From positions 14,356,684 through 14,420,683 of the forward strand of contig OZ316896.1 of NCBI GenBank assembly GCA_973895155.1: a DNA stretch of 64,000 bases, written 5' to 3'. Shown one piece after another: positions 7,915 through 58,400 of this stretch (its first letter is position 1; the number at the start of each line of letters is the position of its first letter). Source of the DNA: Marsupella aquatica. Its lineage: Eukaryota; Plantae; Marchantiophyta. The position numbers and the translations under genes were made by a program. The notes beneath the pieces are model-generated. The model made no database searches, was not told the DNA's origin, and saw nothing but the letters and a program-made list of their open reading frames with translations.

Positions 7915-8080
7915 GTCCTCACTTATTTCCTTTATACCCATCACACAAAAGTAAATATAGGGTTTGTTTATTGGGTTTAGAAGAATAGTTTTAAATTTCT
8001 GTAGAAGAACATTAGGGTTTTTTAAATCCAATTTTGAAAATTCTAAGAGATGATAGGGTTTTAGAAATGAATTTTGGGAA
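7915..8080. repeat. AT-rich dispersed (MITE-like) repeat; inverted copy at about 35615-35780, partial copy at about 37915-37960
   Basis: cacttatttcc..tataccca tcacacaaaa...gtagaagaacattagggtttt...tagaaatgaattttg matches the reverse complement of 35615-35780. Confidence 0.7.
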
Positions 8081-9561
8081 TCCGCAGCTCAAATCAGATG
8101 CACATAAACCAAATGATCAGGCATCCTCTGGGCCATGCCTCTGTTCAATCCATAGGTCAAGATGTTGACATTTTTGCTCAAAAAGGTTGAGCATACAAAC
8201 GCTTTTTGCTCAATAAAATTTGGCTGTTTTGTGCATGTACTGAACAGAAAGGAAACGTCAGGCCTGCAAGGTTGAAACGGGGAGGGAGGAAATGCGTAAC
8301 AAGGGCAGGGCCGGCCATGGGAAGCAATGGTGGGTTGGACTAACCATTGGGTAGACTCTCAACCAATCAAATGCTTCAGTGGGCAGGAAGACAGGGTAGG
8401 GGGGTCAGTATAATAATTGAAATAGATTGGGGGTTACCTTTGTCATGATAACTTTTAGTTTGGGGGTCAGCTTAGTAAAAAGCTGTATATTTTAATTGAT
8501 GCAAGTCTTATGACTCATATGTGTCAATGGGATAATTATGCAATCAGATGCCCGATCAGATGTCTATCACAATATATATATATAATTAACATTAACTTAA
8601 CAAGCAGTTTGATAAGAAAATGATACACCTCAGTACAGTCAGGTATCCCTAGTTAAATTTAAGGGTACTAATGGTCTGGTTCTGGATAATGAGGCCTGTG
8701 GCTAGGTGGAAAACTGATTAATGGAAGTAAAAAAACCTACCAAAATTTTGCTAAAAGTGGCAGAGACTTATGGTGGTGGAATGTAGAAAAAACGAAGGTG
8801 GTGGAATCTAGCAAATCTTTGCCACTGAACAAATGCTTGGTAGGAGCAACTCCACCGGCCTACAGCACCACTTACCAGTTGATATTTGGGTGAGTGATGA
8901 GTTTGCTGGTGGGCTGAGTCCAAAAAGTCATGGAGCATCTGGCGGATACCCCCATCAGTGGACGCTAATAGACTGGGTTCTTGCAGTTCAACACAACATC
9001 TGCCATTTGTTGCCATAGCCATCCAGGTGAGCAGCAATGGCGTCATCCACTTGGTTTGGCAAGTCTCTGGAAGGAGCACTTGCAACTTGCACAAGGCACC
9101 GTCTGAGTCAGCGATTTTCCTGGGTTTTAGGGTGCTTAGAGCTAGTTTTTCTTACATTTAGAATGTTTGGTTGCTGGACTTTGGCCAGGGCATCACAGGT
9201 ACGTGTACCCAAGACATTCATACATTATTAGACAGAGCAGCAGGCCAGATAATCGCACTGAAGGTACTCATTAAAATTTTAGATAATGTTAGAGTATAAG
9301 CAAATTCTAGACATTGACAAAGCTTTGGCTTATCTAGGATATAGCTGGTCCATCCTGGTATGCAATTTGTTATTGTCTCATAGCAATTAGTGCAAGGACG
9401 TCTAGGTCATGTAAGCTCGATTGTGTTTAACAAGTTGGGGCCATCCTTCTTTTAGGCATCATATCCAATTTGCCAAATCTTTTGGCGGCAGTGAGACATT
9501 AAGATTGTTTGTTGGCAATTGCCACAAAGAAATTGCAGTAGCTCTTGCTGGTGCTGGAAAT
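8080..9561. repeat. About 1.5 kb dispersed repeat, copy A (probable decayed transposon); copy B at 38140-39721
   Basis: Colinear and highly similar from atccgca.ctcaaa..gatgcacataaacc to gtagctctt..t.gtgctggaaat. Both copies give the broken minus-strand peptide MLHDFLDSAHQ.THHSPKYQLVSGAVGRWSCSYQAFVQWQ. Confidence 0.9.
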
Positions 9562-18943: not shown

Positions 18944-19663
18944 CTACGCTCGAAAGCCCTGCTCTTCTTCCTTCTTGCTCCCGAAAAACCCACCAAACCA
19001 TGATGAGCCCCCACTACTGCTGCTGGTCGCCCCGCTGCCAGTCGTGGTGGTACCACTCTCCGACTCCAGCCTTTGGCCTTCATAAGTCCCCGTGGAAAAT
19101 TGTGGAACAGGAGGGGAGTCTGACATAGAAAAACTTGGTGCAGATTGGCCTGCTGGATAAGGCATTGTTGGCGCATAGGCCCCCCCAGCCCCAGCAGGTA
19201 TGGGCATCTGTGGCATGGGCTCTTCCAAAGGTGGGGGCTGCGCCATGTTTGCTGTCAACCGATTGAGCATGATTCCCGCGCCTTCAATGAGAGCCAGAAG
19301 GACACCTCCGAAAACTGCAGATCGAGCAGAAGACCTCATTCCTGCCCTAAGTTGGAGGAATCCACCGGTCGCTGCTCCTGCGGCGATGGAATTCCACGGA
19401 TCCTCCTTTTGTCTAAGATAGACCATCGAGCAATCGAAAGTGGAGAATAAACCCCCCCACACTGCAAAACTACCACCGATTCTAGGGGCATTGATCCGCA
19501 CTGCTTGAGTTCCCCCCAGGACCCTCTCCCCTCGAGGGGAATTCTTCATCCCCCTGATGAAATGCCACGCAGAGCCTCCCACCGCACCCATGCTGAACGC
19601 CCCGCCGATGTCATCCAGGATCCTGTCCGGACACGGCTCCCTCGCATGATCGGGAGTCCCCAT
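18944..19663 (-). CDS. TIM17: Mitochondrial inner-membrane translocase subunit TIM17 with long plant-type C-terminal extension
   Basis: DHAREPCPDRILDDIGGAFSMGAVGG, GGSFAVWGGLFSTFDC and RQKEDPWNSIAAGAATGG are Tim17 signatures. The coding region is a single exon. Confidence 0.97.
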   Translation of the reverse strand: MGTPDHAREPCPDRILDDIGGAFSMGAVGGSAWHFIRGMKNSPRGERVLGGTQAVRINAPRIGGSFAVWGGLFSTFDCSMVYLRQKEDPWNSIAAGAATGGFLQLRAGMRSSARSAVFGGVLLALIEGAGIMLNRLTANMAQPPPLEEPMPQMPIPAGAGGAYAPTMPYPAGQSAPSFSMSDSPPVPQFSTGTYEGQRLESESGTTTTGSGATSSSSGGSSWFGGFFGSKKEEEQGFRA

Positions 19664-20197
19664 CTCCTCCCCTCGATCCCAAACTCCCCGGCACCAGCAA
19701 GCGGAACCGTCTCCCTTCTACTAAACCCTCCCCGCTGCTCAAAATGCAGAACAGTCTCGCAAAGCACCAGGAAGCGAGCAATTCCAATACCAGATGGTGA
19801 TGCTCCTGCCTAGAGGCGCCCTGCTGCCGACGGAAGGCGACGACGATAATTGTCGACCAGTTTCAGAATCACGAGATCCCCTTCGCAAGTAAAGCAAAGC
19901 AAAGCTATAGCACTACAACCCTCTACAGTAGATTTGCCGTGCCTCCGGAAAACCTAAACGAAACTTCAAAGGGAGCGGAAACGTGCGATGTAACTGTAAA
20001 CCCCTCACCGTCAAAGCTTCATTGAGCATCATTGTGAGTACGATTTACACTGAAAACCCAAAACGCGAGAGACATGGACGTGGATCTCGAAGGAAGAAGG
20101 AGCGGACATGAATGAACAAACACAAACGACCTTCTTCTAGAGTGAGAATTGTCGCTGTTCCCGACGGAGTGACGGAGGAACGGCTGTAGCGTTTCTT

Positions 20198-25163: not shown

Positions 25164-28100
25164 ATGTCAGGGGCGGAGTTGGCTGTTGTCTTGCCTGTCT
25201 TGTCGACCGTCTTCAAAGCTGCGGGGCAGTTGGTTATGTCATTGCGGGAGGTGCGCGCCATAAAAAAGCACAACGTCGTCATTGCACAAGAAATCGAGCA
25301 CTTTATAAAGTCCTTGAATGAAAACATTGATCTGCTGAAGAAGCAGCGACCCAACAAGCAATCATGGGCGCTCGTTTTCTGCACTCACTCACATTGTCTT
25401 ATGCTTTGGGCAAATCAAATTGAAAGTGGCACAGTAAGTTTCAGACTGATGCAGGAGCCAGCTGCACTGTTAAGTTGCGATTCCCTTTTATTAACGTAAT
25501 GGGGCACTGACACTGTTGCGAGGATCCAACTTCATTGTTGCAAAGTTTCTTGCTACCTCTATATGGTAAGCTAACCCACCTCAACTTGGCATTGGTGGGT
25601 TTGCACGGGGCTTGGTAATCAGAATCATTGGAAACGGATTTGAATGGGGTCACCTGTTACTTGGAGGACAACTTGAAGAACGGGAGATTCCGTCGATTTT
25701 GGGATGCAAAGCAGATCAAGGACGAGCTAGAGAGGCTTCGACAAGATCTAATCAACAAGTTCCAAGTGAAGCTATTTGTCACTAACCTCGAGGTTCGTAT
25801 CTTTGGATACCTGGCAGACGACTCCTACTGATTTTTTCGTTAAGACCAATGAAAGCTTGCGGTGGACATAACTCAAAAGTTAGTAGGAGCATTAAGTCGG
25901 ATATAAATTCGAATTCCTTATATAGTTTGATGTGTGTAGATTGAATTTCCAGATGTGGCATCCGTCTAATAAATGGGCTGAACTCGTGCTGAGTTTGGAC
26001 AGGTTACCATCGATGCGGATAAGAAAATGGACGACTTTGGATTCAGGATGATGGAACTCTCATCGAACATGGCAAATAGTCGTACAGACACTGTTGAAAT
26101 CCGGAAGCTACTGGAACCGCTTGTCGTGGGAATGAAGAGGCAAGACGATAGGATTCAGTCCTTGGTTTCGATCGTCGTACAAAACGAAGCGAAAGTTGAA
26201 ACTTCATCAGACACGCAGAAATTTTTAGCAGATGTGAGAACTCCACAGCTCTGCCCAAGATTTGTGTCCGTTCGTTCCTATTGGCATGGCATCGAACAAA
26301 AGTGCCGGTTGGATGTCTAGCTTCTTACAGGTCTACATGTCTAGCTTCTTCGTGAGGTGTTGTCCGAGTTTCGCGCTGCTCAGCTTTCGACTAGGTTTTG
26401 GGCCCATTAAAGAGACCGTCAGACGATTACAAAACATTCTAGGCACTTGCGCATTTTTCCATCTAGTGAAAACCATAATTATTGATTTGGCTTTAGAGTA
26501 CCAACTCCACTCGACGAGCCATGCATGGTGAGTAGCTGCCTTAGTCTTGCTTCTAAATTGTTACACGGCCATTTGGTCGTCATTGTAGAGAGTCCTGACC
26601 TGGCTCATGTGTTTTGTTTTGGGTTGTATGAATGCAGGTGTTGGCGAGCTTACAAGATCTGGCTGCGGACGAAGGATCTTCGAGATCATCTTCTTCGAGA
26701 TCAACACCAGCAGAAGATGACTACGATGACTACCTCGATCCCATCACCGCCGAGCTGATGATTGATCCTGTCAAATGTGTTGATGGAGAAACTTACGACA
26801 GGCTCACGGTTTTGAAGAATAATCTGACTCAGCAAAAGCAATTGGTTATTTCGTGTGACGATGAATCTGTGCGGAGGCGCCTGTTCAAAAAGTTTCCGGA
26901 CGTAGAAAGACTGTTTTACAGACAGCGCAAGTCCTACCGGGATGAAGCCCTCGAATTAGCCGACACAGGCCATAGCGCCGAAGCATTGACAATGCTGAAA
27001 AATGTGTTGATGTGGGCCCCAGCTGACAAGGAGTGCCGCCAAAGGAGAGACGAACTGCAGCTTGTGCTTGATGCTGAAGAGAAGATGGTTCTGCATATGT
27101 CCAAGCTGGAGGAAACCAAACTGGAGAAACAGACGGTTGATATGTCCAAGATGGAGCAAAAGACAGTTTTGGACAGCAACCTGTTTCAGGTTGCCGATAG
27201 CAACCTGTTTCGGGTTGTGAGTAACATCCTGGAGAACAAGAAGGTTGTGAATCCATTAAATATTAATCCTTGCTTATTTTCAAATCCTTCCTAACCAAGA
27301 GATAGTTAAATAATTTTAGCGTCAAACTCTTATGTATATTTGGAAACTCATAGTTGACCAATGTTAGAAGTTTCCACTTCGGGAAACAAGAGGACAGATA
27401 TCCACAAGTAATTGGTTGTGTTTCAATTTTCATTAGTCCTGTTGGATTCCAATGAATCGTTTGCATGTGTTCTAGAAGAAATTAGCTCGAACAGCTGCAA
27501 GTGTAGGGGGTCAGAATGCTCTGAAAGTGGTTTCTCGACTTTGTTCAGGGTAGGACTATACCTCAGAATTCAAGAGCAAGCATTTCGAGGAACGTCTGCC
27601 ATACGAATGTAACTAGTTACGAGGGGGGAGGGGGAGAGACCCAGCAGCTTCTAGGCCTCTATGACTGGAGAAGGGCGGAACCTCAACCCGATGAGGAGGA
27701 GGTTCCCACACATTTGAACAAAAGAACATGCGGGCACTTTCTGGTCACATCCACAGACAAGTTGTCTGCCAAATATACAGAAATTGTACGGGATCATAAT
27801 GACGTCGGCGCAATTCAGGGGAACCGGCCTGTCCCTGACCAAGGGCTTCTGTACTACTTCGAGATCTCGCTGAAAGATCGAGGTGAGAAGGGATATATTG
27901 CCATTGGGTTCACCGATGAGAACTTCAACGTGAGTCGGCAGCCAGGATGGGAGCCGAACAGTTATGGATACCACGGGGATGATGGAATGCTCTACCACGG
28001 GGCGGGTAGGGGGGAGAAATTTGGTCCTACTTTCACCACAGGCGACACTGTTGGTGCCGGCATCAACTATGCTGCGCAGGAGTTGTTTTTCACGAAGAAC

Positions 28101-29486
28101 GGCAAGCTAGTTGGCACAACATTCAACGACATGAAGGGGCCAGTATATCCCACTGTGGGTATGCACAGTCGGAACGAAGAGGTGGAGGTGAATTTTGGCC
28201 AGAAGCCCTTCACATTTGATGTGGCTGGTCTAGTTCAGGAGGAGCAGGAACGTATCCAGAGCTCTATGTTACGATTCAACGACGAACTCAAATTCAAGAA
28301 GCAAAAAGTTCCCACACATTTCAACACCAGCACATGCAGGCCCTTTGTGGTCACATCCACAGACAAGTTGTCTGCCAAATATACAAAAATTATACGGGAT
28401 CATGTCAAAGACGTAGGCGCAATTCAGGGGAACCTGCCTGTCCCTGACCAAGGGCTTCTGTACTACTTCGAGATCTCGCTGAAAGATCGAGGTGAGAAGG
28501 GATATATAGCCATTGGATTCACCGATGAGAACTTCAACATGTGTCGGCAGCCAGGATGGGAGCCGAACAGTTATGGATACCACGGAGATGATGGAATGCT
28601 CTACCACGGGGCAGGTATTAGGGACAAATTTGGTCCTACTTTCACCACAGGCGACACTGTAGGTGCTGGCATCAACTATGCTGCGCAGGAGTTGTTTTTC
28701 ACGAAGAATGGCAAGCTAGTGGGCACCACATTGAACGATACGAAGGGGCCATTGTATCCCACTGTGGGTATGCACAGTCAAAACGAAGAGGTAGAGGTGA
28801 ATTTTGGCCAGAAGCCCTTCATATTTGATGTGGCTGGTTTAATCCAGGAGGAGCAGGAACGTATCCATAGCTCTATGTTACGAATCAACAACGATCTTGA
28901 ACTCAAGAAGCAAAAAGTTCCCACACATTTCCACACAAGAACATGCGGGCACTTTCTGATCACATCCACAGACAAGTTGTCTGCCAAATATACAGAAATT
29001 GTACAGGATCATGACGTCGGCGCAATTCAGGGGAACCTGCCTGTCCCTGACCAAGGGCTTCTGTACTACTTCGAGATCTCGCTGAAAGATCGAGGTGAGA
29101 AGGGATCTATAGCCATTGGATTCACCGATGAGAACTTCAACATGTGTCGGCAGCCAGGATGGGAGCCGAACAGTTATGGATACCACGGAGATGATGGAAT
29201 GCTCTACCACGGGGCAGGTATTAGGGACAAATTTGGTCCTACTTTCACCACAGGCGACACTGTTGGTGCTGGCATCAATTATGCTGCGCATGAGTTGTTT
29301 TTCACGAAGAATGGCAAGCTAGTCGGCACAACATTCAACGACACAAAGGGGCCATTATATCCCACTGTGGGTATGCACAGTCGAAACGAAGAGGTGGAGG
29401 TGAATTTTGGCCAGAAGCCCTTCATGTTTGAGGTGGATGCTCTCATTCAGGGCCTCCAGAGGCCATTGGAAAGTGATCATGATTGA
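25164..29486 (+). CDS. Chimeric protein of about 1040 aa: MLKL/UND-like four-helix bundle, coiled coil, degenerate U-box, TPR-like hairpin, 3x SPRY (RanBPM-derived). Exons 25164-about 25370/25433 (junction unresolved), 25623-25792, 26003-26233, 26638-27216 (or 27243), 27549-29486
   Basis: Junctions GAG|gttcgt..gacag|GTT, GAT|gtgaga..tgcag|GTG and GTT|gtgagt..ttcag|GGT are all phase 0. The 55 codons from 27549 are open and in frame with the 590-aa triple-SPRY ORF. U-box-like DYLDPITAELMIDPVKCVDGETYDR; SPRY QPGWEPNSYGYHGDDG occurs three times. Confidence 0.8.
27702..29450 (+). repeat. Intragenic tandem triplication of the SPRY module (units start at 27702, 28308, 28917; periods 606 and 609 bp)
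   Basis: gttcccacacattt (VPTH) begins each unit. The units are near-identical with in-frame indels only. Confidence 0.97.
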
Positions 29487-30895
29487 AAGTACAATTTCCC
29501 GTGAAAACCCAAAAAGCGAGATCTCGAAGGAAGAAGGCGTGGACATGAACCAGCAAACATAATTACATCTCTGTATGTATCTACACTCCAATTCGAGATC
29601 AAACTACTTCGTCGACCCCGTAGCAATTTTTTTGTATAGGGTTCATTTGATTGAGCTACGTCTACCGAAATGGAAAGCCTTGGGCACGAAAGGGTTATGT
29701 CAAACAACCAACGGACAGACACCTCATGAGTCTAATAACAAATCTTATAAACGAGACTAAAGGTGTCGTTCTCTCAGGTCGAGTAATTTCTGAAGCTGAT
29801 CTTCTTACTACTATAACAAGAGTCGCACCAAAAATGGTGGATAGCCCAGTTTACAAACTCACTTTTGGAGGGAACATTCTCTCACCATTGGATTTATGCT
29901 AACATTCTCTGACCATTGTATTTATATTTTCTTTTATCTAGGCCTTTCATTATTCAAAAAACAATCTCCCCTAAACCAAAGGAGACAAAACAAAATATTT
30001 TGGTATGGCACAAAGATTCTCTAGGGAGATATGGGATACTATTCCATGTGAGTACCATGTGTTGTCTTTGGAATAGGGGCACTTGGGACACCATTGTGAT
30101 TTTCTTCCCACCCTCGACGGCTTTTCTCTCCTCAAGATCTTTTCTCACCCGGCTCACGGTGCCTCACTTGCCATTATTGAAACTGTATAAGTACTCTGGG
30201 TGACCCGTAGTACTCACTTCCAAAATGCTAATGTCGCATCTGTAGACGCGCGCCCTTTTGCAGCCCTCCGATTGGGAGCTCAATTATTTTTGTCCGTTCA
30301 TCAAATGAGTCGATCTATGGTTCAAAATTCAAATCTTTTTGAGATCTACGTCTCAGAAAAACCAGATTATTGGATGATGAAAATGAGGGAGAAAATTGAT
30401 AAAAACAGTCCAAACAATCTCATTGTTGGAGACCAAAAATTTGAATGTTCAATTTTTGGGCAGGTCGGGCAGCGACAAGTATTCCAATGGACTTCCCGTT
30501 GAGAAGTTATTGTCGTCCGTTTGGCGTTTCCCTTTAGTATTGCAACCATCGCGGCTCACGCCTTGGGCTCACCCTTGGCCCCCACGGAGACAACACTCCC
30601 CTCATGTAGGCTTCTGGAGACCTGTCACCCCCGGACCAACTTTGGTACTCTATATTTTGCCCTCAACTTGGATTCCAACCCGATCGCATGGGCATGCAAC
30701 TAACTTGCTATGCCCATAACTTTCTAGTTACATGTCCGTCAACGAAGTGCCTTAGCCCGTTGTGATTGGGCCGACACGGTGCTCATCCCCGGGCACTCAG
30801 ATCCCGTTGCCAATCACGGGTCCCTAACGGCTCCACATGTGCCACACCGTATCTCATGCACCAAACATCCGATGCGCATGAAGTAAACTTCTTTG

Positions 30896-33029: not shown

Positions 33030-34425
33030 CCTCAATAAGTGTACATTTGCATTTATTGATAAGTGCATGCCCTTTTTTAGTAGAGTAAAAAATACACCTA
33101 TAGCGTAGGACACCAAATTCACGGCAGGGTGTCAGGGAGTGTGATACACGTCACAAGACTGCTCAATCAAACAAAGTGACGTAAATCATGCCCACTCTCC
33201 AACAAGTGCAAATTTTTGGGGTTTGCACTTATCAAGTAGTCAAAACCTGCTCTCTCCTCTCTTCCGCGCTATGGTGTTGTGCTTTCTTCTCGTCTCTTGG
33301 TGTTCACGTTTGGCGAAGAAGGAGTTTTCCCGATTCTAGTTTGTGCGTGATTTTTGCCGATGAGAGCGTTTCTGCCTTCGTCGGTAGATCTCCTGGTCTC
33401 TTGGTGTTCACGTTTGGCGAAGAAGGAGTTCTCCCGATTCTAGTTTGTGCGTGATTTTTGCCGATGAGAGCGTTTCTGCCTTCGTCGGTAGATCTCCTGG
33501 TTTTGTAGTCCTTTCGACCTTTCGCCGCAGCGGATTAGAAGGTCTGAGATATCGTTGTCCCTCGGTGGCTCCACGACTGTTCTCCGGATTCTGTGTATTT
33601 ATTTTCTGGTGGTGCATCTCCTCTGTTCGCTTTGCGTCTCCAGTCTCGTCCGCTCAGGTTTCTTTCTCTTCCCTTCTTTTTCTTCCTACTTCTTCCTTCC
33701 TTCCTTCGGCTCTTGTTGTCCACGTTTCTCCGTTGGGAAGTCGACCTACGGATTCTGTGTTGGCCGAGTTAATGTGCGAATTGAGACAGAAAGGATGGCC
33801 GATGATGTGATGCGGTAGCGAGACGCAGGCCAGGGCAGGATAGATAGGGTGGGTAGGACAGAAATGGATAGGATAGGACAGGACAGGACAGCAGAGGAGA
33901 GGAAAACTGTAGGCCCGTGTGCTGTTCCATTCCATGCTACCACAATTTGCGCTGCTTTTCAGAGAAGAAAAGAACCTGCCTGGTGAGTGCCTGTAACATG
34001 ACTGGTGGTGGGCTAGGGTATTTGTCGACTATACTTGTCGTGGCCAAGGACGCCTGCTGCGGGTTCCAATTTGACTCCAATTTCGAGAAGCAAGCTTGGT
34101 GCTTGCACCGATATAGCAGAAATTATTAGGGTGCTGTCGATATGTTCAACTCTAACCCAGACCGTTCTACCTTTGTCTAGAATACCTCACTGAGTGATTT
34201 TGAAAATTTGATGTACTAGCAGCGCAACCCTTTTCGTTTCGGTGATCTCGCACGGTGGTTACGCTGTTGAGCACAGGTGCTGGAAACCGTAAAAAACCCG
34301 GCGTTCTCGGGCCGCTTTGCTCCCATCCGTAGAGCTCGAGATCATGATCTAGGGGATTATTGATTCGGCGGGCGCGGCTTGACAACCTCAGCCTCCTACA
34401 GTAGCTGTTTGGCATTTGCAATAAC
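33030..34425 (+). promoter_or_regulatory. Duplicated RanBPM upstream region / 5' leader (paralogous to about 48360-49815), with an internal 104-bp tandem duplication at 33293-33500
   Basis: Colinear similarity: gtacatttgca..., cttccgcgctatggtg, gatgatgtgatgcggtagcgagacgcagg, (gacag)n tract, ggcatttgcaataacATG. Confidence 0.85.
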
Positions 34426-35082
34426 ATGGGGGGAGACCAGGTGGTTTCTTCCACGATTGCAGGGGGAGGGGGAGGGGGAGGGACGCAGCAGCTTCTAGGC
34501 CTCTCTGACTGGAGAAGGGCGGAACATAAACCCGAGGAGGAGGAGGTTCCCACACATTTGAATTCGAGCACAAGCGGGCTCTCTGTGGTCATATCTACAG
34601 ACAAGCTCTCGGCAAAATACAGCGGGCGTGCAAAGCATGGCAATGATATCGGCGCAATTCAAGGGAACCGGCCTGCCCCTCACCAAAGTCGTCTGTACTA
34701 CTTCGAGATCACGCTGAAAGATCGAGGTCTGAGGGGATGTATTGCCATTGGGTTCACCGATGAGAACTTCAAAATGAGTCGGCAGCCAGGATGGGAGCCG
34801 AACAGTTATGGATACCACGGAGATGATGGACTGCTGTACCACGGGGCGGGTAGGGGGGAGAAATTTGGTCCTACTTTCACCACAGGTGACACTGTAGGTG
34901 CTGGCATCAACTATGCTGCGCAGGAGTTGTTTTTCACGAAGAATGGCAAGCTAGTGGGCACCACATTGAACGATACGAAGGGGCCATTGTATCCCACTGT
35001 GGGTATGCACAGTCAAAACGAAGAGGTAGAGGTGAATTTCGGCCAGGAACCCTTCATATTTGAAGTGGATGCTCTCGTTTAA
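34426..35082 (+). CDS. Truncated RanBPM paralogue: N-terminus plus a single SPRY domain (218 aa), lacking LisH-CTLH-CRA
   Basis: Intact ORF with the same ATG context as 49816. It aligns to residues 1-218 of the full gene and stops at ...FEVDALV*, where the parent continues LVQEERERR. It could be expressed or a young pseudogene. Confidence 0.85.
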   Translation: MGGDQVVSSTIAGGGGGGGTQQLLGLSDWRRAEHKPEEEEVPTHLNSSTSGLSVVISTDKLSAKYSGRAKHGNDIGAIQGNRPAPHQSRLYYFEITLKDRGLRGCIAIGFTDENFKMSRQPGWEPNSYGYHGDDGLLYHGAGRGEKFGPTFTTGDTVGAGINYAAQELFFTKNGKLVGTTLNDTKGPLYPTVGMHSQNEEVEVNFGQEPFIFEVDALV

Positions 35083-35174
35083 GCTCGAAACGTGAGATCT
35101 CGAAGGAAAAAGGATTGGACATGAATCATCAAACATAAGTACATCTGTATATCTATGTATACTACGAGTCGAGA

Positions 35175-35345
35175 CCCAACTCAACTGGGTTTTGCTTACT
35201 GGGTACACTATATACCCAGTAGTACATTAAATACCCAGTCATTCTACATCCAACTATCTTAACCCAACTGGGTTTTGGCTTACTGGGTCCAACTATCTTA
35301 ACCCAACTGGGTTTTGGCTTACTGGGTACACTTACTGGGTACATT
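35175..35345. repeat. Short tandem/dispersed repeats (caactgggttttggcttactgggt)
   Basis: The motif occurs three times, including an exact duplication of about 39 bp. Confidence 0.75.
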
Positions 35346-38139
35346 AAATACCCTGTATGTTAGGGACCAACTGAAAAGCACCCCCTCCCCAACCCTGATG
35401 GGATAATCTTCCCTAAACAGCAGATTTGACAGCTGTAGATTAAGATCTTGAAACTCCAATTGCCAACTTAATAAGGAGTCAACTACTTGATAATCTCTCT
35501 CTCAGGGGCCTCACTCTAAATGGGTGTCTCGTAACCCTTTTTTAGTTATTAAACATACCAAAAAAATTGAAGAGTAAATCTATCCTTATATTTTTGAAAT
35601 ATTCTATAAAAAAATTCAAAATTCATTTCTAAACTCTTATCTTTTCTTATAATTCTCAAAATTGTACTTTAAAAATCTTATGTTCTTCTACATAAATTTA
35701 AAAGTATTCTTTTCAATCCAATAAACAAACTCTCTATACTTATTTTTTGTGTGATGGATAAAAAGGAAATAAGTGAGAACCCTAGGATATCTCTATAATC
35801 TCTCCCATATATAGATCCAAATCCAACAGCCAACCTAATAAGGTGTCAACTAATGTATAATCTCTCTAGAATAATCTCTTCCATATATAGATCCTGGAAC
35901 CAAAAAACTCTGTTCCTGAAATCCAGATAGAGTTATAGTGAGTGGGTTAGACTTGAGTCTACACCAAGAATTTTACCTTCCAATTCTTATGACTCCATTT
36001 TCGAGTCAAATTGTGTGTGGATAAGGCGCTAATTGATCAACAGCAGATGCTTATTAATCAATTACCCGACCCAAGCCTAGTTTTAGGCGGTTGAGAAGCT
36101 CGTCATATGACGCGCAGTGAAATGCCTGGTATAGGGGACTGGGGTAGCTAGCCCAATGAGCCAGTCCCCGGACTAATTCGGCAGTTAGGTAGTGCCCTCG
36201 CTTTGGTACAAAAGGTCCGAAGGCACAGTCCGAACTGCGTTCTATACCATGTCCCATTAGCCCACACGTTCAAAATGGCCTTGCACGAACTGTAGGCAAC
36301 ACCAGTGAGGGTCCACTTCAGTCATCTGGACAGAGGTGGACGTCAGAGAGCCCGTAGTACTCGCCTACCTGAAGGGTGAAAACTTGAAAAATATTTTTTC
36401 TTTTCCTACTTGGCACAAGGGGCTTTCTATAATCCCCCAATTGACAAACCCCCCAAATCTTTTCTTGAAATATCGTAATGTAACAAAGTGAAACACCTGT
36501 TTTCGCTCTTGTTCAATCCGTTGGTTAATATATACATAGATTGGCAATTATTCCAGCCTATCGCAAATAGTGAATGGGTTGGACCTGACTTTCTAGATTT
36601 TCCTACTGGGTTTGGTCAACACCCAGTTACAATAGATGCTCTTAGGGAATCAAGCTAGGTATAGAGTTGGAGTCTAGGCTGCTCTTAGGGAAGCTAGAGT
36701 TGGAGTCTAGGCTGAACAGAGTAAAGCTTGAAGCCTCTAGACCGTGACTGTAGGGCCCTACCAAAGCAAATGTGCGTGTAAAGAAGATATATATAAACAT
36801 TTACAACTATAATAAGGGATCCTGCCTTTCTTCATCCTTCATCCCAATACAAAAAAGCTCTTGGGCGGGAAAGATCCATAGCTGTCGAATTTGATTAGCT
36901 ATTTTCCCTGATCATTGATGAAAAAAATGTGCACCTTTGACACATATGTGCTTCCTGCTGCCCCATAAATGCCCCGGCCCGACTCCCTATGGGCGGCCCT
37001 CCTTGCACAATGCAACGCACTGGCATAGGGCTCGTGATGGTATATTATGTATGACATGAATAAATGAGTATTATTTTTGTCATTTCTCCATTCCCTATTC
37101 AAAGAATGGGAAGAGGGAATAAATTTTATTACATTTTATTATCCTCTCCTCTACTCACCTTCAAAGAAAGATAGTTGGGGAGGGTACCCTCCATTGAAAG
37201 CCACACTTTCGAGCCTAGTATACTCTAGACTGAAACCTCTAACTGCAACTAGTATCCACAAGTGTTGGGGTGAGGCAAGAGGTGGGGAAGTACCTTGGGC
37301 CTAAGCAAAGCTCAGGCATTCAGGCTAGTTAATACTATAATTTGCAATCCAAATTGACCAATCATGACCTATTTGGTAGCTCAGGTGAAGCCAGAGGCCG
37401 TGAGTGATTTCTCTGGTACCAAAAAAATTTGATCAGGTCTCTTCATCTGTTACATAACCAACCTTCCTCAAAGTTACTACAAAAAAAATTTGAATTGCTA
37501 GCTTTCCAAAAAGTGTTTAATGTATTTTTCACATAATGATTATATTTGGGGACATGTAAATCACTCAAACCCATAAACTGCCGAAACAAACTTTTAAAGT
37601 TCTCCTCACATGTCATGTTTCTAGTTGACAACTTTTTAGCTTGTAGTAATTGTGAATAAGGTTCAAAAACATGGTGGGCCTTTCATGTATTTCTCACACA
37701 TATAAGGACTTCATTTAGTGACACTGTGAATAAGTTTCAAAAACGTGGGACTCCGTGGGTCTTTCATGTATTTCTCACATACAGCTTTTTACTATCCTGT
37801 CCCCCAAAGTAAGCTAAATTATTAACTTACCCCCAAAATTATTTTAATTGCTAGGTTGCCCCCCCCATTCTGTATATATGAGTTACTTTCACTGTTTTAG
37901 TTAACCCCAGCTCATGTTCTATAGAAGAACATTAGGGTTTTACAAATGAATTTTGGGAATATTTTGAGAATATTCTAGAAATATAGTCGTAGAAAAATAG
38001 TTCAAAAATTATATTCCCCTTATTTTTTAGGGTGTTTAATAGCTAAAAATATCGAGCATTTTATGAGACCCCCTTTAGAATGAGGCCCCCAAGGAGCATC
38101 CTGAAGCAATTGCTGCTATTTATGGTGGATGGTAAATTA

Positions 38140-39721
38140 ATCCGCAACTCAAAACCGATGCACATAAACCAAACGATCAGCCATGCTCCGGGCCATGCCT
38201 CTGTTCAATCCATAGGTCAAGATGTTGACATTTTTTGCTCAAAAAGCTTGAGCGTACAAACGCTTTTTGCTCAAGAAATGTTGGCTATATTCTGCATGTA
38301 CTCAACGAAAAGGACACGTCGGGCCTGCAAGGTTGAAAGTTTGGTGGGGAGGGAGGAAATGCGTAACAAGGGCAGGGCCGGCCATAGGAAGCAATGGTGG
38401 GTTGGACTAACCATCGGGTAGACTCTCAGCCAATCAAATGCTTCAGTGGGCAGGAAGACAGGGTAGTATTACCCTGATATGGTTTGGGGATCAGTACAAT
38501 AATTGAAACAGATTGGGGGTTGCCTTTGTCATGATACCGTTTAGTTTGGGGGTCAGCTTAGTAAAAAGCTGTATATTTTAATTGATGTGAGTGTTATGAC
38601 TCATATGACGTCAATGGGATATACAATCAGATGTCTGTCACAATTCATACATATATATAATTAACATCAAATTAACAAGCGGTTTGATAAAAAATGATTG
38701 CCCAACATACCCATAGAAATAATTTCAGAACCATGACTGTAGTGATCAAGCTTGTGGGAAATACCCATACACCTCAGTATTGTGATGTAGGCTAATTTTT
38801 TACGGTCACATGTCCCTAAATTTAAGGGTACTAATGGTCTGGTTCTGGATAACTAGGCCTGTGGTTAGCTAGGTGGAAAACTGATTAATGGAAGACAAAA
38901 AACCTACCAAAATTTTGCTAAATGTGGCAGAGACTTATGGTGTTGAAATGTAAAAAAAAGGTGGTGGAATCTAGCAAATCTTGCCACTGAACAAATGCTT
39001 GGTAGGAGCAACTCCACCGGCCTACGGCACCACTGACCAGTTGATATTTGGGTGAGTGATGAGTTTTCTGGTGGGCTGAGTCCAAAAAGTCATGGAGCAT
39101 CTGGAGGATAGCCCCATCAGTGGATGTAGTAGACTGGGTTCTTGCAGTCCACCACAACATCTGCCATTTGTTGCCATAGCCATCCAGGTGAGCAGCAATG
39201 GCGCAATTTGTGTCATCCACTTGCTCAAACTTAGCCAGAAGTGGCATGTGCAAGGCACCATCTGAGTCAGTGATTTTCCTGGGTTTAAGGGTCCTTGGAG
39301 CTAGTTTTTCTTACATTTAGAATGTTTGGCTGCTGGACTCTGGCCAGGGCATCACACTTACCTGTGCCCAAGACATTCAGACATTATTAGACAGAGCAGC
39401 AGGCCAGATAACTGCACTGAAGGTACTCATAAAATTTTAGATAATGTAAGAGTATAAGCAAATTCTAGACATTGACAAAGCTTTGGCTTATCTGAGATAT
39501 AGCTGGTCCATCCTGGTACGCAATTTGTTATTGTCTCATAGCATAATTAGTGCAAGGACCTCTAGGTCATGTAAGCTTGATTGAGTTTAACAAGTTGGGG
39601 CCATCCTTCTTTTAGGCATCATATCCAATTTGCCAGATCTTTTGGCGGCAGTGAGAAATTAAGATTGTTTGTTGGCAATTGCCACAAAGAAATTGCAGTA
39701 GCTCTTGGTAGTGCTGGAAAT
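38140..39721. repeat. About 1.5 kb dispersed repeat, copy B (see 8080-9561)
   Basis: Colinear match to 8080-9561 with small indels. Confidence 0.9.
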
Positions 39722-40940: not shown

Positions 40941-41218
40941 TTATTTAGTTTTACAATGTGAAGCCAAATGGGTTTTAATTATGTACATTTCTATCGATTG
41001 ATTTTTTCAAACTTGTAAACAATTAAAAAATAGAAACATTTTAATATAAAACATTGATAAATCTTTGATAAACACTAGTACATTTTACCTCCTTTTTCCG
41101 ATTCTCTCCACATCGGACGCCTTTGTAAAATAAAATTTGAAAAACCATATATCCGATACTACTAGCATCGCAACATGCCATTTTAATAGTATCGGATATC
41201 GACAATCGGACTTCTATC

Positions 41219-41372
41219 GGAAAGTCCGATGGTGGGAGAATGGGAAAGTCCGATGGTGGGAGAATGGGAAAGTCCGATGCTAGGAGAATGGGAAAGTCCG
41301 ATGGTGAGAGAATGGGAAAGTCCGATGCTAGGAGAATGGGAAAATCCGATGCTAGGAGAATGGGAAAGTCCG
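41219..41372 (+). repeat. 24-bp tandem array (ggaaagtccgatgctaggagaatg) x about 6, left part of the CACTA
   Basis: Direct inspection; this array produces the spurious ESPMLGEW and SDFPILL ORFs. Confidence 0.95.
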
Positions 41373-42224
41373 AAGCAATCAAAATGGGATATGCATTTCA
41401 GCGGACGCGACATGCTCAGGTCACCCATCTCTTCCTTTAATTGGGTTTCTACTTTCATTTGGAACTATGAGCTATATAGGTGCCCATCTCCCTTGACATG
41501 TGAACTCTTCAAATTTTCTCAACTAATTGGTCACCCATCCCAATTGCTATTCCTCCAACATGAGCTTAACTTTGTGGTTCTTATTCCTTACATTGTACAT
41601 GCAAGCTTAGCACTTTTGTTGTTTGACTTAGAGTGTTTGGGGATTTTATGCACTTGTGAGTTTACTAAGACCCATAATTTGGACCCATTCTTGATCCATT
41701 TTTCTCTATCATGAGATTAGATCTTTGCATCAAGTGACCTATTCTAGTTACCCTATTACATTCCCCTAGGAGAAACCAATAGAAATCTGGCACGGGTCAT
41801 TCATCGATAGTAAAGCCCTCCTTCATTAGATTTGATATGGGATAATTATGGCTTATTAGTTATGGATGATATTTTGGTCCTTCCAAAGCCTCAGCGTCAA
41901 TGGCTCCTGATTGTCTCATCTTTTATCAACTATGTTGTTGTTGGACTTGCAACAAAGACTACATGGGACAAACAACCTCCTTCTAGATGATGTATTTTGG
42001 ACTTGGCATGTTGAGCACATATTTCCGTAAGGGAACAATATGTTGGGTCTTGGAATGAGGCAAAAACAACACTCAAGTCCATTTGCCTCAAGTATGAAGT
42101 TATTCATGCATGCAAGAATGATTGCATCTTTTGGGAAGAGTATGTCGGTGCAACCACATACCCCATCTAACACATCAAAACTTTTCATTCTAACACAATC
42201 AAAAATTTTCTTTTTGTCATAACC

Positions 42225-42400
42225 AGACTTTCCCATACTCCCAGCATCGGACTTTCCCATTCTTCTAGCATCGGACTTTCCCATTCTTCCAGCATCGGAC
42301 TTTCCCATTCTTCCAGCATCGGACTTTCCCATTCTTCTAGCATCGGACTTTCCCATACTCCCAACATCGGACTTTCCCATTCTCCCAACATCGGACTTTG
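42225..42400 (-). repeat. 24-bp tandem array x about 7, reverse complement of the 41219 array
   Basis: catcggactttcccattcttctag units. Confidence 0.95.
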
Positions 42401-42789
42401 CCATGTTAGCACAATCGGATATAATATCCGTTCTTATTAACTACGGAAAGTTTCCGATCAATATTGTAACGCACATCATTTTCGTTACAAAAAACATCGG
42501 ACATATCAATCAAAGTTTCTGTTGAGGGATCCGATATGTTTTCTAACGGATATGATCCGTTTTTTAACGCATCGGAAAGGTTCCGTTGTCAATTATATCG
42601 GAAATGAAGATATCCAAAGCCGAGAGTATGGCATATTGCCATTTTTTGATAATCGAAATTTCCGATGCTAAAAGAATCGGACGCCGATTGTTCGCAAAAA
42701 TTGAGCATCGAAAATCAGCTTAATATGTACTAGTGAAACATCAAAATGATAACTTTGTTTTACTAAATGACATCTCTTTCTTTGTATTT

Positions 42790-49815: not shown

Positions 49816-51207
49816 ATGGGGGGAGACCAGCTGGTTTCTTCCACGATTGCAGCTGGAGGTGGAGGGGGAGGGACGCAGCAGCTTCTAGGCCTCTATGACT
49901 GGAGAAGGGCGGAACCTAAACCCGAGGAGGAGGAGGTTCCCACACATTTGAATACCAGCACATGCGGGCTTTTTCTCGTCATATCCACAGACAAGCTGTC
50001 AGCGAAATACACCGGGCCTGGAAATCATGGCAATGATGTCGGCGCAATTCAGGGGAACCGGCCTGCTCCTCACCAAAGGCTTTTGTATTACTTCGAGGTC
50101 ACGCTGAAAGATCGAGGTCTGAGGGGATGTATTGCCATTGGATTCACCGATGAGAACTTCAAAATGAGTCGGCAGCCAGGATGGGAGCCGAACAGTTATG
50201 GATACCACGGAGATGATGGACTGCTGTACCACGGGGCGGGTAGGGGGGAGAAATTTGGTCCTACTTTCACCACAGGTGACACTGTAGGTGCTGGCATCAA
50301 CTATGCTGCGCAGGAGTTGTTTTTCACGAAGAATGGCAAGCTGGTGGGCACAGCATTCAAAGACACTAAGGGGCCATTATATCCTACTGTGGGTATGCAC
50401 AGCCAGAACGAAAAGGTGGAGGTGAATTTCGGCCAGAAACCCTTTATATTTGATGTGGATGCTTTAGTTCAGGAGGAGCGGGAACGTCGCCAGAGGTCAG
50501 TGGAAAGTGTGCCACTGGCACTGAGTGTGAGCCACAGCGTTGTGCGGACATATTTACTTCATTATGGATATCAGGACACGCTCACAGCTTTCGACGTGGC
50601 AAGTGGCGGTACCTTTCGACCCACGGTGGTTCCCCCTGCAGACCCTTCGGTATCTGGGACCGAAGATGATACATCTGAATATGCGCTAGAGCAACGGAAA
50701 ATTCTGCGTCGGCTTGCGAGAGAAGGGGACATAGATGGTGTGTTCACCAAACTACGAGAATGGTATCCTGAGCTACTCCAAAACGGTGTGTCGCAGATCA
50801 ATTTCCCTCTTCATTGCCAAAAATATATAGAATTGGTTAAAGCAGGATCTTTGGAAGCTGCAGTGAATTATGCTCGAACAGAGATGGCGAATTTCTTTGG
50901 TATCTCTCCTCTAGAAGATGTGCATTTGCAGGACTGCCTAGCGTTACTTGCTTATGAGCATCCTGAGAAATCTCCAGTTAGCTATTTGTTGCACGTAGCA
51001 CAGCTGGAGGCCGTAGCGGACGCTGTTAATGCAGTTGTCTTAGCCACGAACCCATCAAATCATGGTAAACCACCTCAATCAGCTCTGGAAAAGTTGTTGC
51101 GACAGCTTACTGCTTGTTTAATGGAAAAACGGCAATTGAATGGGGGCCAAGGAGAGATATTCACGTTGCAGCGGGTTCTTCAAGGCGGGAAAGATGGTGG
51201 GTGGTAG
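49816..51207 (+). CDS. RanBPM: Ran-binding protein M / RanBP9-10 homologue (GID1-like scaffold of the CTLH E3 complex): SPRY-LisH-CTLH-CRA, 463 aa
   Basis: SPRY (YYFEV, QPGWEPNSYGYHGDDG, FFTKNG, LYPTVG, VNFGQ), LisH (SVVRTYLLHYGYQDTLTAF), CTLH (RKILRRLAREGDIDGV, LHCQKYIELV) and CRA (ALLAYEHPEKSPV, VADAVN, SALEKLLRQL). Confidence 0.96.
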   Translation: MGGDQLVSSTIAAGGGGGGTQQLLGLYDWRRAEPKPEEEEVPTHLNTSTCGLFLVISTDKLSAKYTGPGNHGNDVGAIQGNRPAPHQRLLYYFEVTLKDRGLRGCIAIGFTDENFKMSRQPGWEPNSYGYHGDDGLLYHGAGRGEKFGPTFTTGDTVGAGINYAAQELFFTKNGKLVGTAFKDTKGPLYPTVGMHSQNEKVEVNFGQKPFIFDVDALVQEERERRQRSVESVPLALSVSHSVVRTYLLHYGYQDTLTAFDVASGGTFRPTVVPPADPSVSGTEDDTSEYALEQRKILRRLAREGDIDGVFTKLREWYPELLQNGVSQINFPLHCQKYIELVKAGSLEAAVNYARTEMANFFGISPLEDVHLQDCLALLAYEHPEKSPVSYLLHVAQLEAVADAVNAVVLATNPSNHGKPPQSALEKLLRQLTACLMEKRQLNGGQGEIFTLQRVLQGGKDGGW

Positions 51208-55429: not shown

Positions 55430-58400
55430 GCGTTGCTCTCAAATAAACTCATATGTAGAAGGAATCTTGCTTTCCGTTCGCCAAGCTTCTGGATTTATGA
55501 ACCAGGAGTGCTCTCTTGGTGTCCTCCCCGTGGCCAACACAAATGGCACAACCCCTGTCGCCAATGCTTTGTTGAGTTATGCCAAAACTCAGCCATTGTT
55601 AAGTGCTTGGCCCAATCTTTCTAATTGGTTGTCATCAAATGACATAAATAATCTAACCCTTCCACGATACCGTTCAACCGTTTCGTTTGGCCATCTGTCT
55701 CATGATGATACACTGATCCTCTAGTAAGGTTTGTGTCGGATAACCAGAACAACGCCTTCTAGAAGTGGCCAGTGAACTTAGTGTCGCGGTTGAACAGGAT
55801 GTGCAATGGCAATCCCCATTGTTGGAAGACTTTGTCAAACACTAGACCGACAACTTCTTGGGCCGAACCCATTTTTGTAGTAGGCAGGAAATACGTCATC
55901 TTGGAAAAATGATCAACAATCAACGATCAAGAACTTAGGTAACCAAACAATGAAGTCCATGGAGATTGACTCCCATGGCACCTTGGCTACTGGTAATGGT
56001 TGCAATAGTCCTCCTTTTTCACTATAGATCGTTCGGTTCTTTTGGCACAAGTAACAACTTTGCACATGGCAAAGAATTGATTGCTTCATGTTTGGTCAAT
56101 ACACATCTCGCGGCATATTGTGGTATGTACGTAGCAGCTTGTCCGCCATGCCCTCCGCAAGGTGAGTCATGGTACTTTTGAAAAAACTCAAGTCTGAGAG
56201 ATTTGGGGATGTATACGCGCCTCTGTGCGCTTGTATCGCCAGATTGGACATTATGCATGGTATCCAACCCCAATGAAACGTGCCTAACCTTGCCTTGGCT
56301 ACCCCCACGGCTTTGTCATTCCCTAGGTAACCTGTCATCCCTATATGCTGCGGCCTGAACCTTTCACCACTCAGATTTGAGCATCGTGATCCCATTGACA
56401 CGATGATGGTCCCTAAACAATAAAGCGTCAGGTGCCGTGTTTGTTTCCCAAGATTGTGGCAAACTTCAAAATCAAAATTTGCCAAGAACAGCCAGCGCAT
56501 TTCCTTAGGGTTCAGTCTTGGGTTAGAATTAAAATACCCTGTTGCCAAGCTATTTCTGTGTATTATCACCTTGGGACTGTTCTTAAAGTAAATCTCATAT
56601 TTCTTCAATGCATAGATCATTGCATACATTTCTCTTTTGGGGGTGATCTAGTGATTTTCCAACTTACATGACTCAAAGGCCACAGGACGCCCGTCTTGGT
56701 GTAGACAAGTGCCAATGGCATAATCACTTGCGTTTGTACAAATCTCGAACGACTTCTCCATCTCAGGTAACTTTAAAACTGGTGGCGTTATCATAGGTTG
56801 CTTAAGTTTTAGGAATGCTAGCTCACAATCCTTTGTCCACACAAACACTTTGTTTTTCATAGTTAACGCATTCAAGGGTCTCGCAATCTTTGCATAGTCC
56901 TTCATGTATCTCCGATAGAACCAAGAAGACCCTAACCTGCCTCACATTGGATGGGGGTTCCCATTCTAGATTAGGATATCATCAATAAAGAGTACATCTC
57001 CTTGGTCCAACAAGTCATCAAAGATGATATTCATCATCTTCATGAACATTGTGGTTGCATTACACAACCTGAACGGCATAACCAAAAACTTGTAGGATCC
57101 AAACTTTGTGAGCACTGCCATTTTATACTCATCCCTTACTCATGCAGGTCTGGTAATACCCAAACACCAAGTCCTCCTTTGAAGACTTCTTTCCCTTGGA
57201 GAGGCAATCAAATAGGTCATCCATATGAGGTAGCAGATCATACTTATTCTTTACCATTTGCTTATTGAGGGCTCGGTAATCTGCGCACAATCTCAAAGTA
57301 CCATCCTTTTTGGACACAAACAATTTGGGCGCCCCGTAATGGCTCTTACTAGGATGAATGAAACCTTGGTCAATTAACTCTTCCAGAGCATTCTTCAACA
57401 TCATTTTTTCCTTCAAGTTTAGACAGTAACAAGCTTTTGCTTGTGGAGGCCCTAGCTCCAACTCAACTTGGTGATCCACTTCCCTCCAAGGGGGCAAACC
57501 TTTAGGTAGCTTCTAAGAAAACACATAATTGAATTCCTCCAAAATCTTGGGAATTTGACCACAATCAGGCCCAACCTTAGGCTACTTAGCAGCCTCCTAA
57601 ACAGAGTGGAGATGAAAGAAGAAACATTCATCTCCACCCTTAAAATCCTTCCACCATTGCTTCGCCGATACACACGGAAACAACCACGATACTTTACTTA
57701 CTTTGTGAAATCTTTCTTTATTTTTGTTAATTTTGTGTACAACCATGGGCTCACCGCCCTCATCAAGAAAACTTACCACCACATCTCCCGATTTCAAAGT
57801 AACATTGTGCCTTCTAAGACGTACAACATCTCTTGACTAACAAAATTTTGCTTCTTGCCTCTGACCTCTACTCAAAGTCTATATACCACTCTCGACAATA
57901 TCCCTTTTGTGTCGTTAGCAAACTTGCAGACTAATGGTTGTAATAGCTAGACCTTGTATGTCTACCCCAAGATGTGCGATCGCCTGCCCGCTTATGAAGC
58001 AGATGGTCATGCTTGTATCCACCAAAGCAACACCCGCATTACCGTTAGAAGTGACATTCACAAAAATCAGCTTGTTAGGTTTGATTGTCTTAGCCTTAGG
58101 TACTTTCTTATGCAACAACATCTTCTCCCTGGAAGGAATTTCCACTACTGGAACTTCTTCAACTACTAAGGGGTCCCTTAGAGTGATACTTATCTTAATG
58201 CTTTTTGGCCCCGCATCTTCGCTTGGCTTTTCGCCACATGTGGGGCAGTCTTCACTTTGATGATCAAATGCGCCGCATTTGTAGCATGAGCCTTTTGCTC
58301 GCCGTTTCTCCATGAGTGCTTCCTTCTTCGCCTTTGGCCAAGACAAAGGTCCCTTTTGAAAGTTGTTGGTCTTCCGGTTGCACTTTGCAGCACCTCCATT
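55430..58400 (-). mobile_element. Decayed Ty3/Gypsy LTR retrotransposon gag-pol (zinc knuckle, PR, RT, RNase H, IN)
   Basis: In order: CYKCGAFDHQSEDC; ALVDTS (protease-like); [26 protein letters not shown]; YAKIARPLNALT..FVWT..TNASDYAIG; YHDSPCGGHGG; TDGQTKRLN..WAKHL..AEF.HN. RT-RH-IN order indicates Gypsy. Many frameshifts and stops. Confidence 0.93.

Follow-up and report, generated by a model that had tools for sequence, protein, structure and literature searches.

A triple SPRY array of local RanBPM origin as the predicted last exon of a U-box gene in the liverwort Marsupella aquatica

Results and Discussion

A 64,000-nucleotide stretch of the Marsupella aquatica genome (contig OZ316896.1, positions 14,356,684 to 14,420,683, forward strand; hereafter the window, numbered from its first letter) contains a 653-codon open frame at 27525-29486 (+) with three Pfam SPRY matches inside it (T1, T2 and T3). 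Sequence comparison traced this array to the RanBPM gene located further along in the window and showed its insertion into an exon of a U-box gene, triplication, gene conversion among the copies, purifying selection on the SPRY scaffold and unchanged anchor residues in the binding pocket. We consider it probable that the array is a multivalent tip which binds protein N-termini and is carried by a U-box ligase or scaffold acting outside the CTLH complex.

The Triple SPRY Frame and Its Predicted Host Gene

The three copies are 92.6-93.3% identical to each other in DNA and 86-88% identical to the parent RanBPM gene (P), and all the length differences between them are whole codons. The initial annotation of this DNA had reported the copies free of frameshifts and stops, and the frame is indeed open throughout. 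Exact contigs from four public sequencing runs (X1 to X4) were found, among the matches listed, over the junction between the U-box exon and the first SPRY (27159/27164-27671; X1, X2 and X4) and over the junction between the second and third SPRY (28775-28989; X1 and X2); the array is thus genomic. An assembly artefact or collapsed duplicate was considered and ruled out by these contigs and by the divergence of the tandem copies. No source for the inter-SPRY linkers (28255-28307 and 28864-28916) was found elsewhere in the 64-kb window.

No in-frame ATG precedes the first SPRY in the frame, and the triple SPRY is predicted not to be a stand-alone gene; joined in phase, it would make up the terminal exon of the gene upstream, the donor GTGAGT at 27217 and the acceptor ending at 27548 being both phase 0. 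The fusion to a U-box gene and the lack of a start codon had been overlooked by the initial annotation. The upstream gene is predicted to encode, in five exons (Table 1), a four-helix bundle, a helical linker, a U-box, a helical hairpin and the three SPRY domains. When the triple SPRY was used as query, a fern protein with a U-box and three SPRY domains was matched, Adiantum capillus-veneris GOP47_0027315 (KAI5057300.1, 977 residues, hereafter P0007), and the N-terminal part of this protein matches the window at 25538-25828, 26003-26236 and 26686-27189, in order. The U-box was detected by Pfam with E 4e-7 (30.5 bits against a cut-off of 21.4), a match that covers only positions 3-37 of the 73 in the model. 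No RING or B-box appeared when the exons were scanned with Pfam, and no NB-ARC was found in scans of the window exons or of 14 family proteins. We infer that splicing joins the five exons and yields a single product of some 1,040 residues (about 1,042 if intron 1 is spliced at the family position).

Capture from the Neighbouring RanBPM Gene

In a blastn comparison, 27624-28264 aligned to 49858-50498 within the parent gene with 88% identity. The copied RanBPM DNA begins at 27624, with the parent ATG outside the copied part, and a Pfam CTLH match was found only in the parent (49816-51207) and not in 27525-29483. Paralogues of the host gene were represented by contigs in all four public runs. Among the matches listed, those in X1, X3 and X4 had loose ends behind 27576, which show a short gap, about 25 more window-like bases and then up to 96-178 bases unlike the window, with 30 letters of each end visible; no source of this paralogue exon-5 continuation was found in the 64-kb window. 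The paralogues have the acceptor region in common with the window gene but lack its RanBPM DNA, which places the insertion point at about 27612-27624. As they diverge after the shared acceptor, the SPRY DNA is a capture from the RanBPM gene nearby.

In addition to the parent, the window carries a truncated stand-alone RanBPM copy (S), which has the upstream region of the parent from about 33252, so that the duplicate spans 33252-35082. T3 and S have a common 3' flank (29512-29605 against 35088-35181, 81%), suggesting that one truncated RanBPM duplicate gave rise to both. The DNA after T3 (29474-29605) and S (35088-35181) also resembles 20023-20125, just upstream of a Tim17-family gene, with 72-81% identity. 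S would encode a 218-residue SPRY-only protein, with a ratio of nonsynonymous to synonymous rates (omega) of 0.22 to the parent, and its product could compete with the parent RanBPM.

The best match of a single SPRY was the RanBPM of Calypogeia fissa, followed by those of Marchantia and Riccia. T1-T3 nest with S and P beside the Calypogeia RanBPM in a tree of 46 SPRY domains, in which none of the SPRY domains of the fern fusion proteins comes within the RanBPM clade of 35 rows. A forced clade of T1-T3 and four fern-type fusion SPRYs was rejected by the approximately unbiased (AU) test (24 rows, p-AU 0.003), in which the constraint group had been named after the first tree was seen and long branches were present. 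In a tree of the N-terminal part (11 rows) the window gene groups with the Riccia protein P0129 and not with the proteins of ferns and Marchantia. The triple-SPRY tip thus likely arose at least twice, independently in ferns and in a liverwort; conceivably, a newer array replaced an older one in the liverwort.

The copies show traces of exchange. Over codons 111-177 (201 bases), S and T2 are separated by 6 differences and the pairs T1-T2 and T2-T3 by 14 each, and in codons 67-110 the differences are 0 of 129 bases between T2 and T3 and 1 of 129 between P and S. The copies are mosaics, mixed by gene conversion.

Table 1. Features of the predicted U-box-SPRY gene and of the RanBPM copies in the window.
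Feature	Position	Strand	Basis
Predicted exon 1: ATG and first half of N-terminal four-helix bundle	25164-25374	+	Alignment to fern/liverwort family N-termini
Damaged intron-1 donor, without strong GT in the required phase	25372-25375	+	Window and contigs
Strong cryptic donor GTAAGT, in frame only with exon 2 skipped	25434-25439	+	
Predicted exon 2: second half of four-helix bundle	25623-25792	+	tblastn of fern P0007 (E 8e-8); AG/GT borders
Predicted exon 3: helical linker	26003-26233	+	tblastn of P0007 (E 8e-4); splice borders
Predicted exon 4: U-box and TPR-like helical hairpin; phase-0 GTGAGT donor at end	26638-27216	+	
U-box inside exon 4, without the SPF loop of the family	about 26725-26829	+	Pfam
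Predicted exon 5 start, host-derived, after phase-0 acceptor ending at 27548	27549-27612	+	
Captured RanBPM leader, parent ATG excluded	27624-27701	+	blastn
SPRY copy 1 (T1)	27702-28226	+	Pfam and codon alignment
SPRY copy 2 (T2)	28308-28835	+	Codon alignment
SPRY copy 3 (T3)	28917-29438	+	Codon alignment; stop codon ends at 29486
Stand-alone RanBPM copy S, truncated: own ATG, one SPRY, stop	34426-35082	+	
Parent RanBPM (P): SPRY and CTLH/CRA, single open frame, SPRY-DNA donor	49816-51207	+	

Binding Pocket and Rim

According to a preprint (bioRxiv 10.64898/2026.09.15.751905), the crystal structure of RanBP9 with a degron shows peptide N-termini bound via W247, H255, D257, D258 and G266, and Y229 in contact with the first side chain of the peptide. 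None of the equivalents of the five anchors has changed in any of the three tandem copies, and they are conserved in 117, 117, 117, 115 and 107, respectively, of 117 orthologues (the 120 listed matches minus P0001, P0005 and P0007). The motif QPGWEPNSYGYHGDDG, which had been described as invariant, is identical in all five SPRY copies of the window. Because this motif corresponds to the main binding pocket, the binding mode would be a conserved one and not a new one. We interpret the invariant motif as the floor of the pocket and the changes as lying at its rim. The SPRY copies match RanBP9/10 structures at E about 1e-42; the changes were placed by alignment to the published contacts and not in three dimensions, the single-sequence model of T1 having a predicted local distance difference test (pLDDT) value of 31.

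At the Y229-equivalent site, which is variable among orthologues, the parent has C, and T1, T2 and T3 have Y, Y and S. T2 and T3 are changed at positions 267-269 and differ from T1 beside G266. Changes were found at 4 of 62 highly conserved positions near or within loops, those at H31, A45 and K77 being present in all copies; the last residue, kept by 115 of 117 orthologues, is N in all three. The change H31D depends on the alignment, as the histidine may persist one codon later. Loop 27-34 is the most altered, with a length different in each copy and made mainly by indels, and its count of changes is inflated, because the alternative alignment keeps the histidine. The changed positions are less conserved among orthologues (median 0.78 against 0.92, p = 0.001).

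Each of the motif changes listed by the initial annotation was recovered in the codon alignment of the five copies. They had been counted as the copies' own, but some are the parent's own, since K64 is found in 108 of 117 and I56 in 92 of 117 orthologues. The core strands, which had been called invariant, are not: the columns of parent V56, T57, L97 and L150 change. In the loops defined by the published contacts, 9 of 35 positions are derived, against 27 of 142 elsewhere (p = 0.36). The values are 18 of 51 against 18 of 126 (p = 0.003; 36 derived positions in total) for a wider set, which adds loops 26-35 and 156-161 from general SPRY structure and was chosen after the alignment had been seen. 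An enrichment in "four named patches" (16 of 18) was rejected as circular.

Selection on the SPRY Copies

Codon models of our own, not those of PAML, were fitted to five sequences (P, S and T1-T3), and their power is low. Pairwise omega was 0.30-0.33 between the copies and the parent and 0.40-0.56 among the copies, and on the tree it was 0.12 on the parent branch against 0.47 on the rest (p = 0.02). With fixed classes, omega was 0.66-0.73 in loops and 0.27-0.36 elsewhere, a contrast with p = 0.03-0.06 for the published-contact loops and p = 0.0008 for the wider set. The assertion that divergence falls mainly in the loops goes too far: the loops evolve faster, but half of the derived positions (18 of 36) lie outside the widest loop set. 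The N-terminal 66 codons are faster as a whole (0.53 against 0.21). Among T1-T3, omega was 0.49, below 1 (p = 0.027), and 0.33 outside loops (p = 0.003), and the loop value of 1.37 could not be told apart from 1 (p = 0.63). Conversion between the copies and indels distort such counts.

Positive selection of the kind seen in TRIM5 and in the nematode SPRYSEC effectors had been put forward for the loops. The background is sound, as loop selection in SPRYSEC and, by citation, in the TRIM5 SPRY is confirmed by PMC5071358. Its extension to the window was not borne out, since model M2a was never better than M1a (three starts; separate tree per segment; five sequences) and the loop omega did not differ from 1. 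In the strong form of this proposal the three loop sets have been driven apart by positive selection for different new ligands. We regard this as very improbable: the loops do evolve faster than the rest, H31, A45 and K77 are changed, and T2 and T3 depart from T1 beside G266, but no class with omega above 1 appeared, the differences among copies are not enriched in loops (12 of 51 against 16 of 126 positions, p = 0.11) and T2 equals T3 over codons 67-110, where most pocket residues sit. Release from RanBPM constraints accounts best for the divergence of the loops, a part of which is possibly adaptive; the scaffold is constrained (omega about 0.3) and the rim relaxed.

Proposed Function and Its Alternatives

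The sequences show that SPRY DNA of the local RanBPM gene was inserted into an existing exon of a member of the U-box gene family, was triplicated in tandem and underwent gene conversion. In the scheme that we propose, the RanBPM pocket for peptide N-termini would have been retained and its rim loosened and retuned. Free N-termini would be bound as in human RanBP9, with the side-chain preference altered via the Y229-equivalent site and the adjacent loops, and the bound proteins would be handed, away from the CTLH complex, to a ligase or scaffold of the U-box type.

Several points weigh against this scheme, in addition to the placement of the changes by alignment and the late choice of the wider loop set. 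Binding of N-termini is known for human RanBP9/10 only, from the preprint cited above (bioRxiv 10.64898/2026.09.15.751905), and conversion from copies under constraint could be part of the reason for omega values below 1. No spliced joint was found in the contigs of the four public runs, which cross the predicted introns. The phase-1 donor that the family has at intron 1 is missing in the window, with which exact contigs in X1, X2 and X3 agree, and the remaining donors are weak in-frame ones at 25396, 25426, 25438 and 25474. One contig of X4 (25276-25525) differs by 3 letters in 250 and by a 5-base insertion that supplies the phase-1 donor, and cannot be phased with exon 5. Because this copy, about 99% identical, keeps the donor, the lesion must have arisen long after the triplication (synonymous divergence, dS, 0.09-0.135); with its donor recently damaged, the window haplotype probably makes little full-length product.

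The U-box is also short of four residues, including a loop proline kept by Riccia P0129 and by solved U-boxes. Exon 4 is 53% identical to P0129, with a 4-residue gap at the second U-box loop, and alignments to PDB entries stop before this loop for the window and run through it for P0129. A local paralogue contig (X3, 26677-26992) aligns without gaps at the shortened loop. The conserved proline of the second loop has a role in E2 binding. Since the proline loop is missing from the window U-box and apparently also from that of the paralogue, it is doubtful whether any member of the local subfamily acts as a ligase.

The damaged donor and the shortened U-box would also fit a decaying by-product of an unstable region, that is, a chance in-frame insertion with tandem expansion, now a pseudogene, in which loop changes are tolerated and the array was under constraint for a short time or was homogenised by gene conversion. 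The second, truncated RanBPM copy and the other local duplications are in line with such decay, as are the lower conservation of the changed positions and a loop omega not different from 1. We nevertheless judge it decidedly unlikely: omega outside loops is 0.33 among the copies, all three copies remained stop-free in 1.6% of 5000 runs of a rough neutral simulation, length differences are whole codons, the donor damage long postdates the triplication, and ferns kept the same design of U-box and three SPRY domains.

The Fern and Liverwort Family

With residues 1-370 of P0007 as query, 10 proteins were found among 7987 scored. Five of them end in SPRY domains, four of these being Adiantum proteins including P0007; a kinase forms the C-terminus of P0123, and P0125 is called kinase-containing by its source record; two Marchantia members end in TPR, and Riccia P0129 has no Pfam C-terminal domain. 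Four further members of the A. capillus-veneris cluster are also U-box-SPRY proteins, so that the breadth of the family rests on 10+4 proteins. In A. capillus-veneris, seven genes of the U-box-SPRY type share one contig, and the locus tags of six of them nearly follow one another. The N-terminal module of the window gene is homologous to that of 10 of 10 members (blastp E 1e-27 to 4e-64) and has its parts in the same order, and 33 of 117 columns are invariant in an alignment of eight U-box/hairpin sequences. Exon 4 alone as query gave 0 of 1385 longer-protein candidates, a word-index miss, P0007 being a clear homologue. Metagenome matches (4 loci among 154 candidates) were rejected as family evidence, as the U-box core alone was matched. 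In the fern-type arrays (P0007, P0121, P0122, P0124 and P0126) the first SPRY is without the W/H/DD pocket, which is retained in domains 2 and 3 of P0007 and in domain 2 of P0121. No report of U-box with SPRY in ferns or liverworts was found in a limited full-text literature collection, and a SPRYSEC review was the only find there on effectors that target RanBPM.

Residues 1-125 form four helices in a model of the fern N-terminus that was built from 14 sequences and has a mean pLDDT of 61. Its best structure match is the potato Rx coiled-coil (CC) domain (Z 13.2, root-mean-square deviation 1.8, 109 residues aligned), followed at Z 9-10 by Cbl-N, NRG1.1 CC-R and MLKL. The Rx-CC score is tied with those of unrelated bundles (IncA, 12.7; a designed protein, 12.3), at the noise level that the tool has for helical bundles; with the same model Foldseek found nothing at E <= 0.001, and the Pfam MLKL_N match is weak (E 0.79). 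The modelled likeness to the CC domain of NLR proteins is a hint only.

These likenesses would suit an immune receptor, with an NLR-CC/MLKL-like signalling bundle and the SPRY array as captured bait, that is, a decoy or sensor for effectors targeting RanBPM/CTLH or for protease-made N-termini, and with arms-race selection on the rim loops too weak for five sequences to reveal. The C-termini swap among SPRY, kinase and TPR within the family, the seven U-box-SPRY genes are clustered in A. capillus-veneris, the point estimate of loop omega is 1.37, and CC domains of non-flowering plants trigger cell death, according to PMC11218826. The structural scores are, on the other hand, matched by unrelated bundles, with no support from Foldseek or MLKL_N, there is no NB-ARC in the proteins scanned, and no positively selected site was found among the five sequences; such a receptor is in our opinion unlikely.

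Relation to Known Systems

The array shares with RanBPM/RanBP9/RanBP10 (Gid1, the SPRY subunit of the CTLH/GID E3) the SPRY type and the W/H/DD pocket anchors. It differs in being without LisH, CTLH and CRA, in its tandem triplication, in being joined to a U-box gene and in its changed rim; without LisH/CTLH/CRA the array has no route into the CTLH complex. With the Adiantum U-box-SPRY proteins and their relatives in Marchantia, Riccia and A. nelumboides, recorded as "hypothetical proteins", it has the bundle, linker, U-box and hairpin in common (29-40% identity), and P0007 and P0124 likewise end in three SPRY domains. The fern SPRYs, in contrast, are of old origin and branch outside every RanBPM orthologue sampled, and the relatives keep the SPF loop of the U-box; the closest relative of the window N-terminal part, Riccia P0129, has no SPRY.

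The TRIM architecture consists of RING, B-box and coiled coil. TRIM-SPRY proteins (TRIM5, TRIM21) and SPSB resemble the window gene in design, with an E3-type domain, a helical spacer and a C-terminal SPRY, whereas here a U-box stands for the RING, there is no B-box, the SPRY is of RanBPM type with three per chain, and positive selection is not demonstrated. The nematode SPRYSEC proteins are likewise RanBPM-like SPRYs freed from CTLH domains and diversified in loops (PMC5071358), but the present case is a plant gene with a U-box fusion and no positive selection detected. Proteins of the NLR CC, CC(Cbl-N, MAEPL) and MLKL types would share the predicted four-helix bundle with an amphipathic first helix and a swappable captured C-terminus; here NB-ARC and LRR are lacking, and the fold match is within helical-bundle noise. 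The array thus resembles TRIM-SPRY proteins or integrated-domain NLRs in design and is a member of neither.

The window presents a domain capture with donor, intermediate truncated copy and recipient within 27 kb, and a design of U-box and three SPRYs that was apparently reached twice. The parent and the three copies form a natural series for reading of N-termini by plant RanBPM and for specificity set by the rim; the pocket that was captured has only lately been recognised in human RanBP9/10 as reading N-degrons, which makes the series useful. Were the bundle to signal, ferns and liverworts would possess in this family a receptor of new design. A broader proposal, which we put forward as doubtful speculation, is that seed-free plants possess an undescribed modular receptor/ligase family, consisting of a CC-like bundle, a U-box and a swappable sensor (SPRY array, kinase or TPR), to which ferns and a liverwort independently added three SPRYs, the liverwort taking the N-degron pocket of its own RanBPM as bait; it would be a plant counterpart of TRIM that reads N-termini or traps CTLH-aimed effectors.

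Other Features

The two tandem SPRY domains of an ENA protein (P0001, 384 residues) nest within the moss RanBPMs, at the end of a long branch (0.82), and HGDDG has become HGDNG in them; the RanBPM SPRY appears to have been amplified in tandem here once more, as a separate event. In the window, a Tim17-family gene with a single open frame (18947-19717, minus strand; Pfam E 2e-32) lies head to head with the U-box gene. A direct duplication of 1.5 kb (8079-9561 and 38139-39721) has its copies 30 kb apart and 85-91% identical. Inverted arms of 24-base tandem units at 41216-41389 and 42226-42419, 89% complementary over 174 bases, likely belong to an element of the DNA-transposon type. Retrotransposon remnants were found at 56099-58424 (minus strand), with weak zinc knuckle, aspartyl protease and RNase H-like matches.

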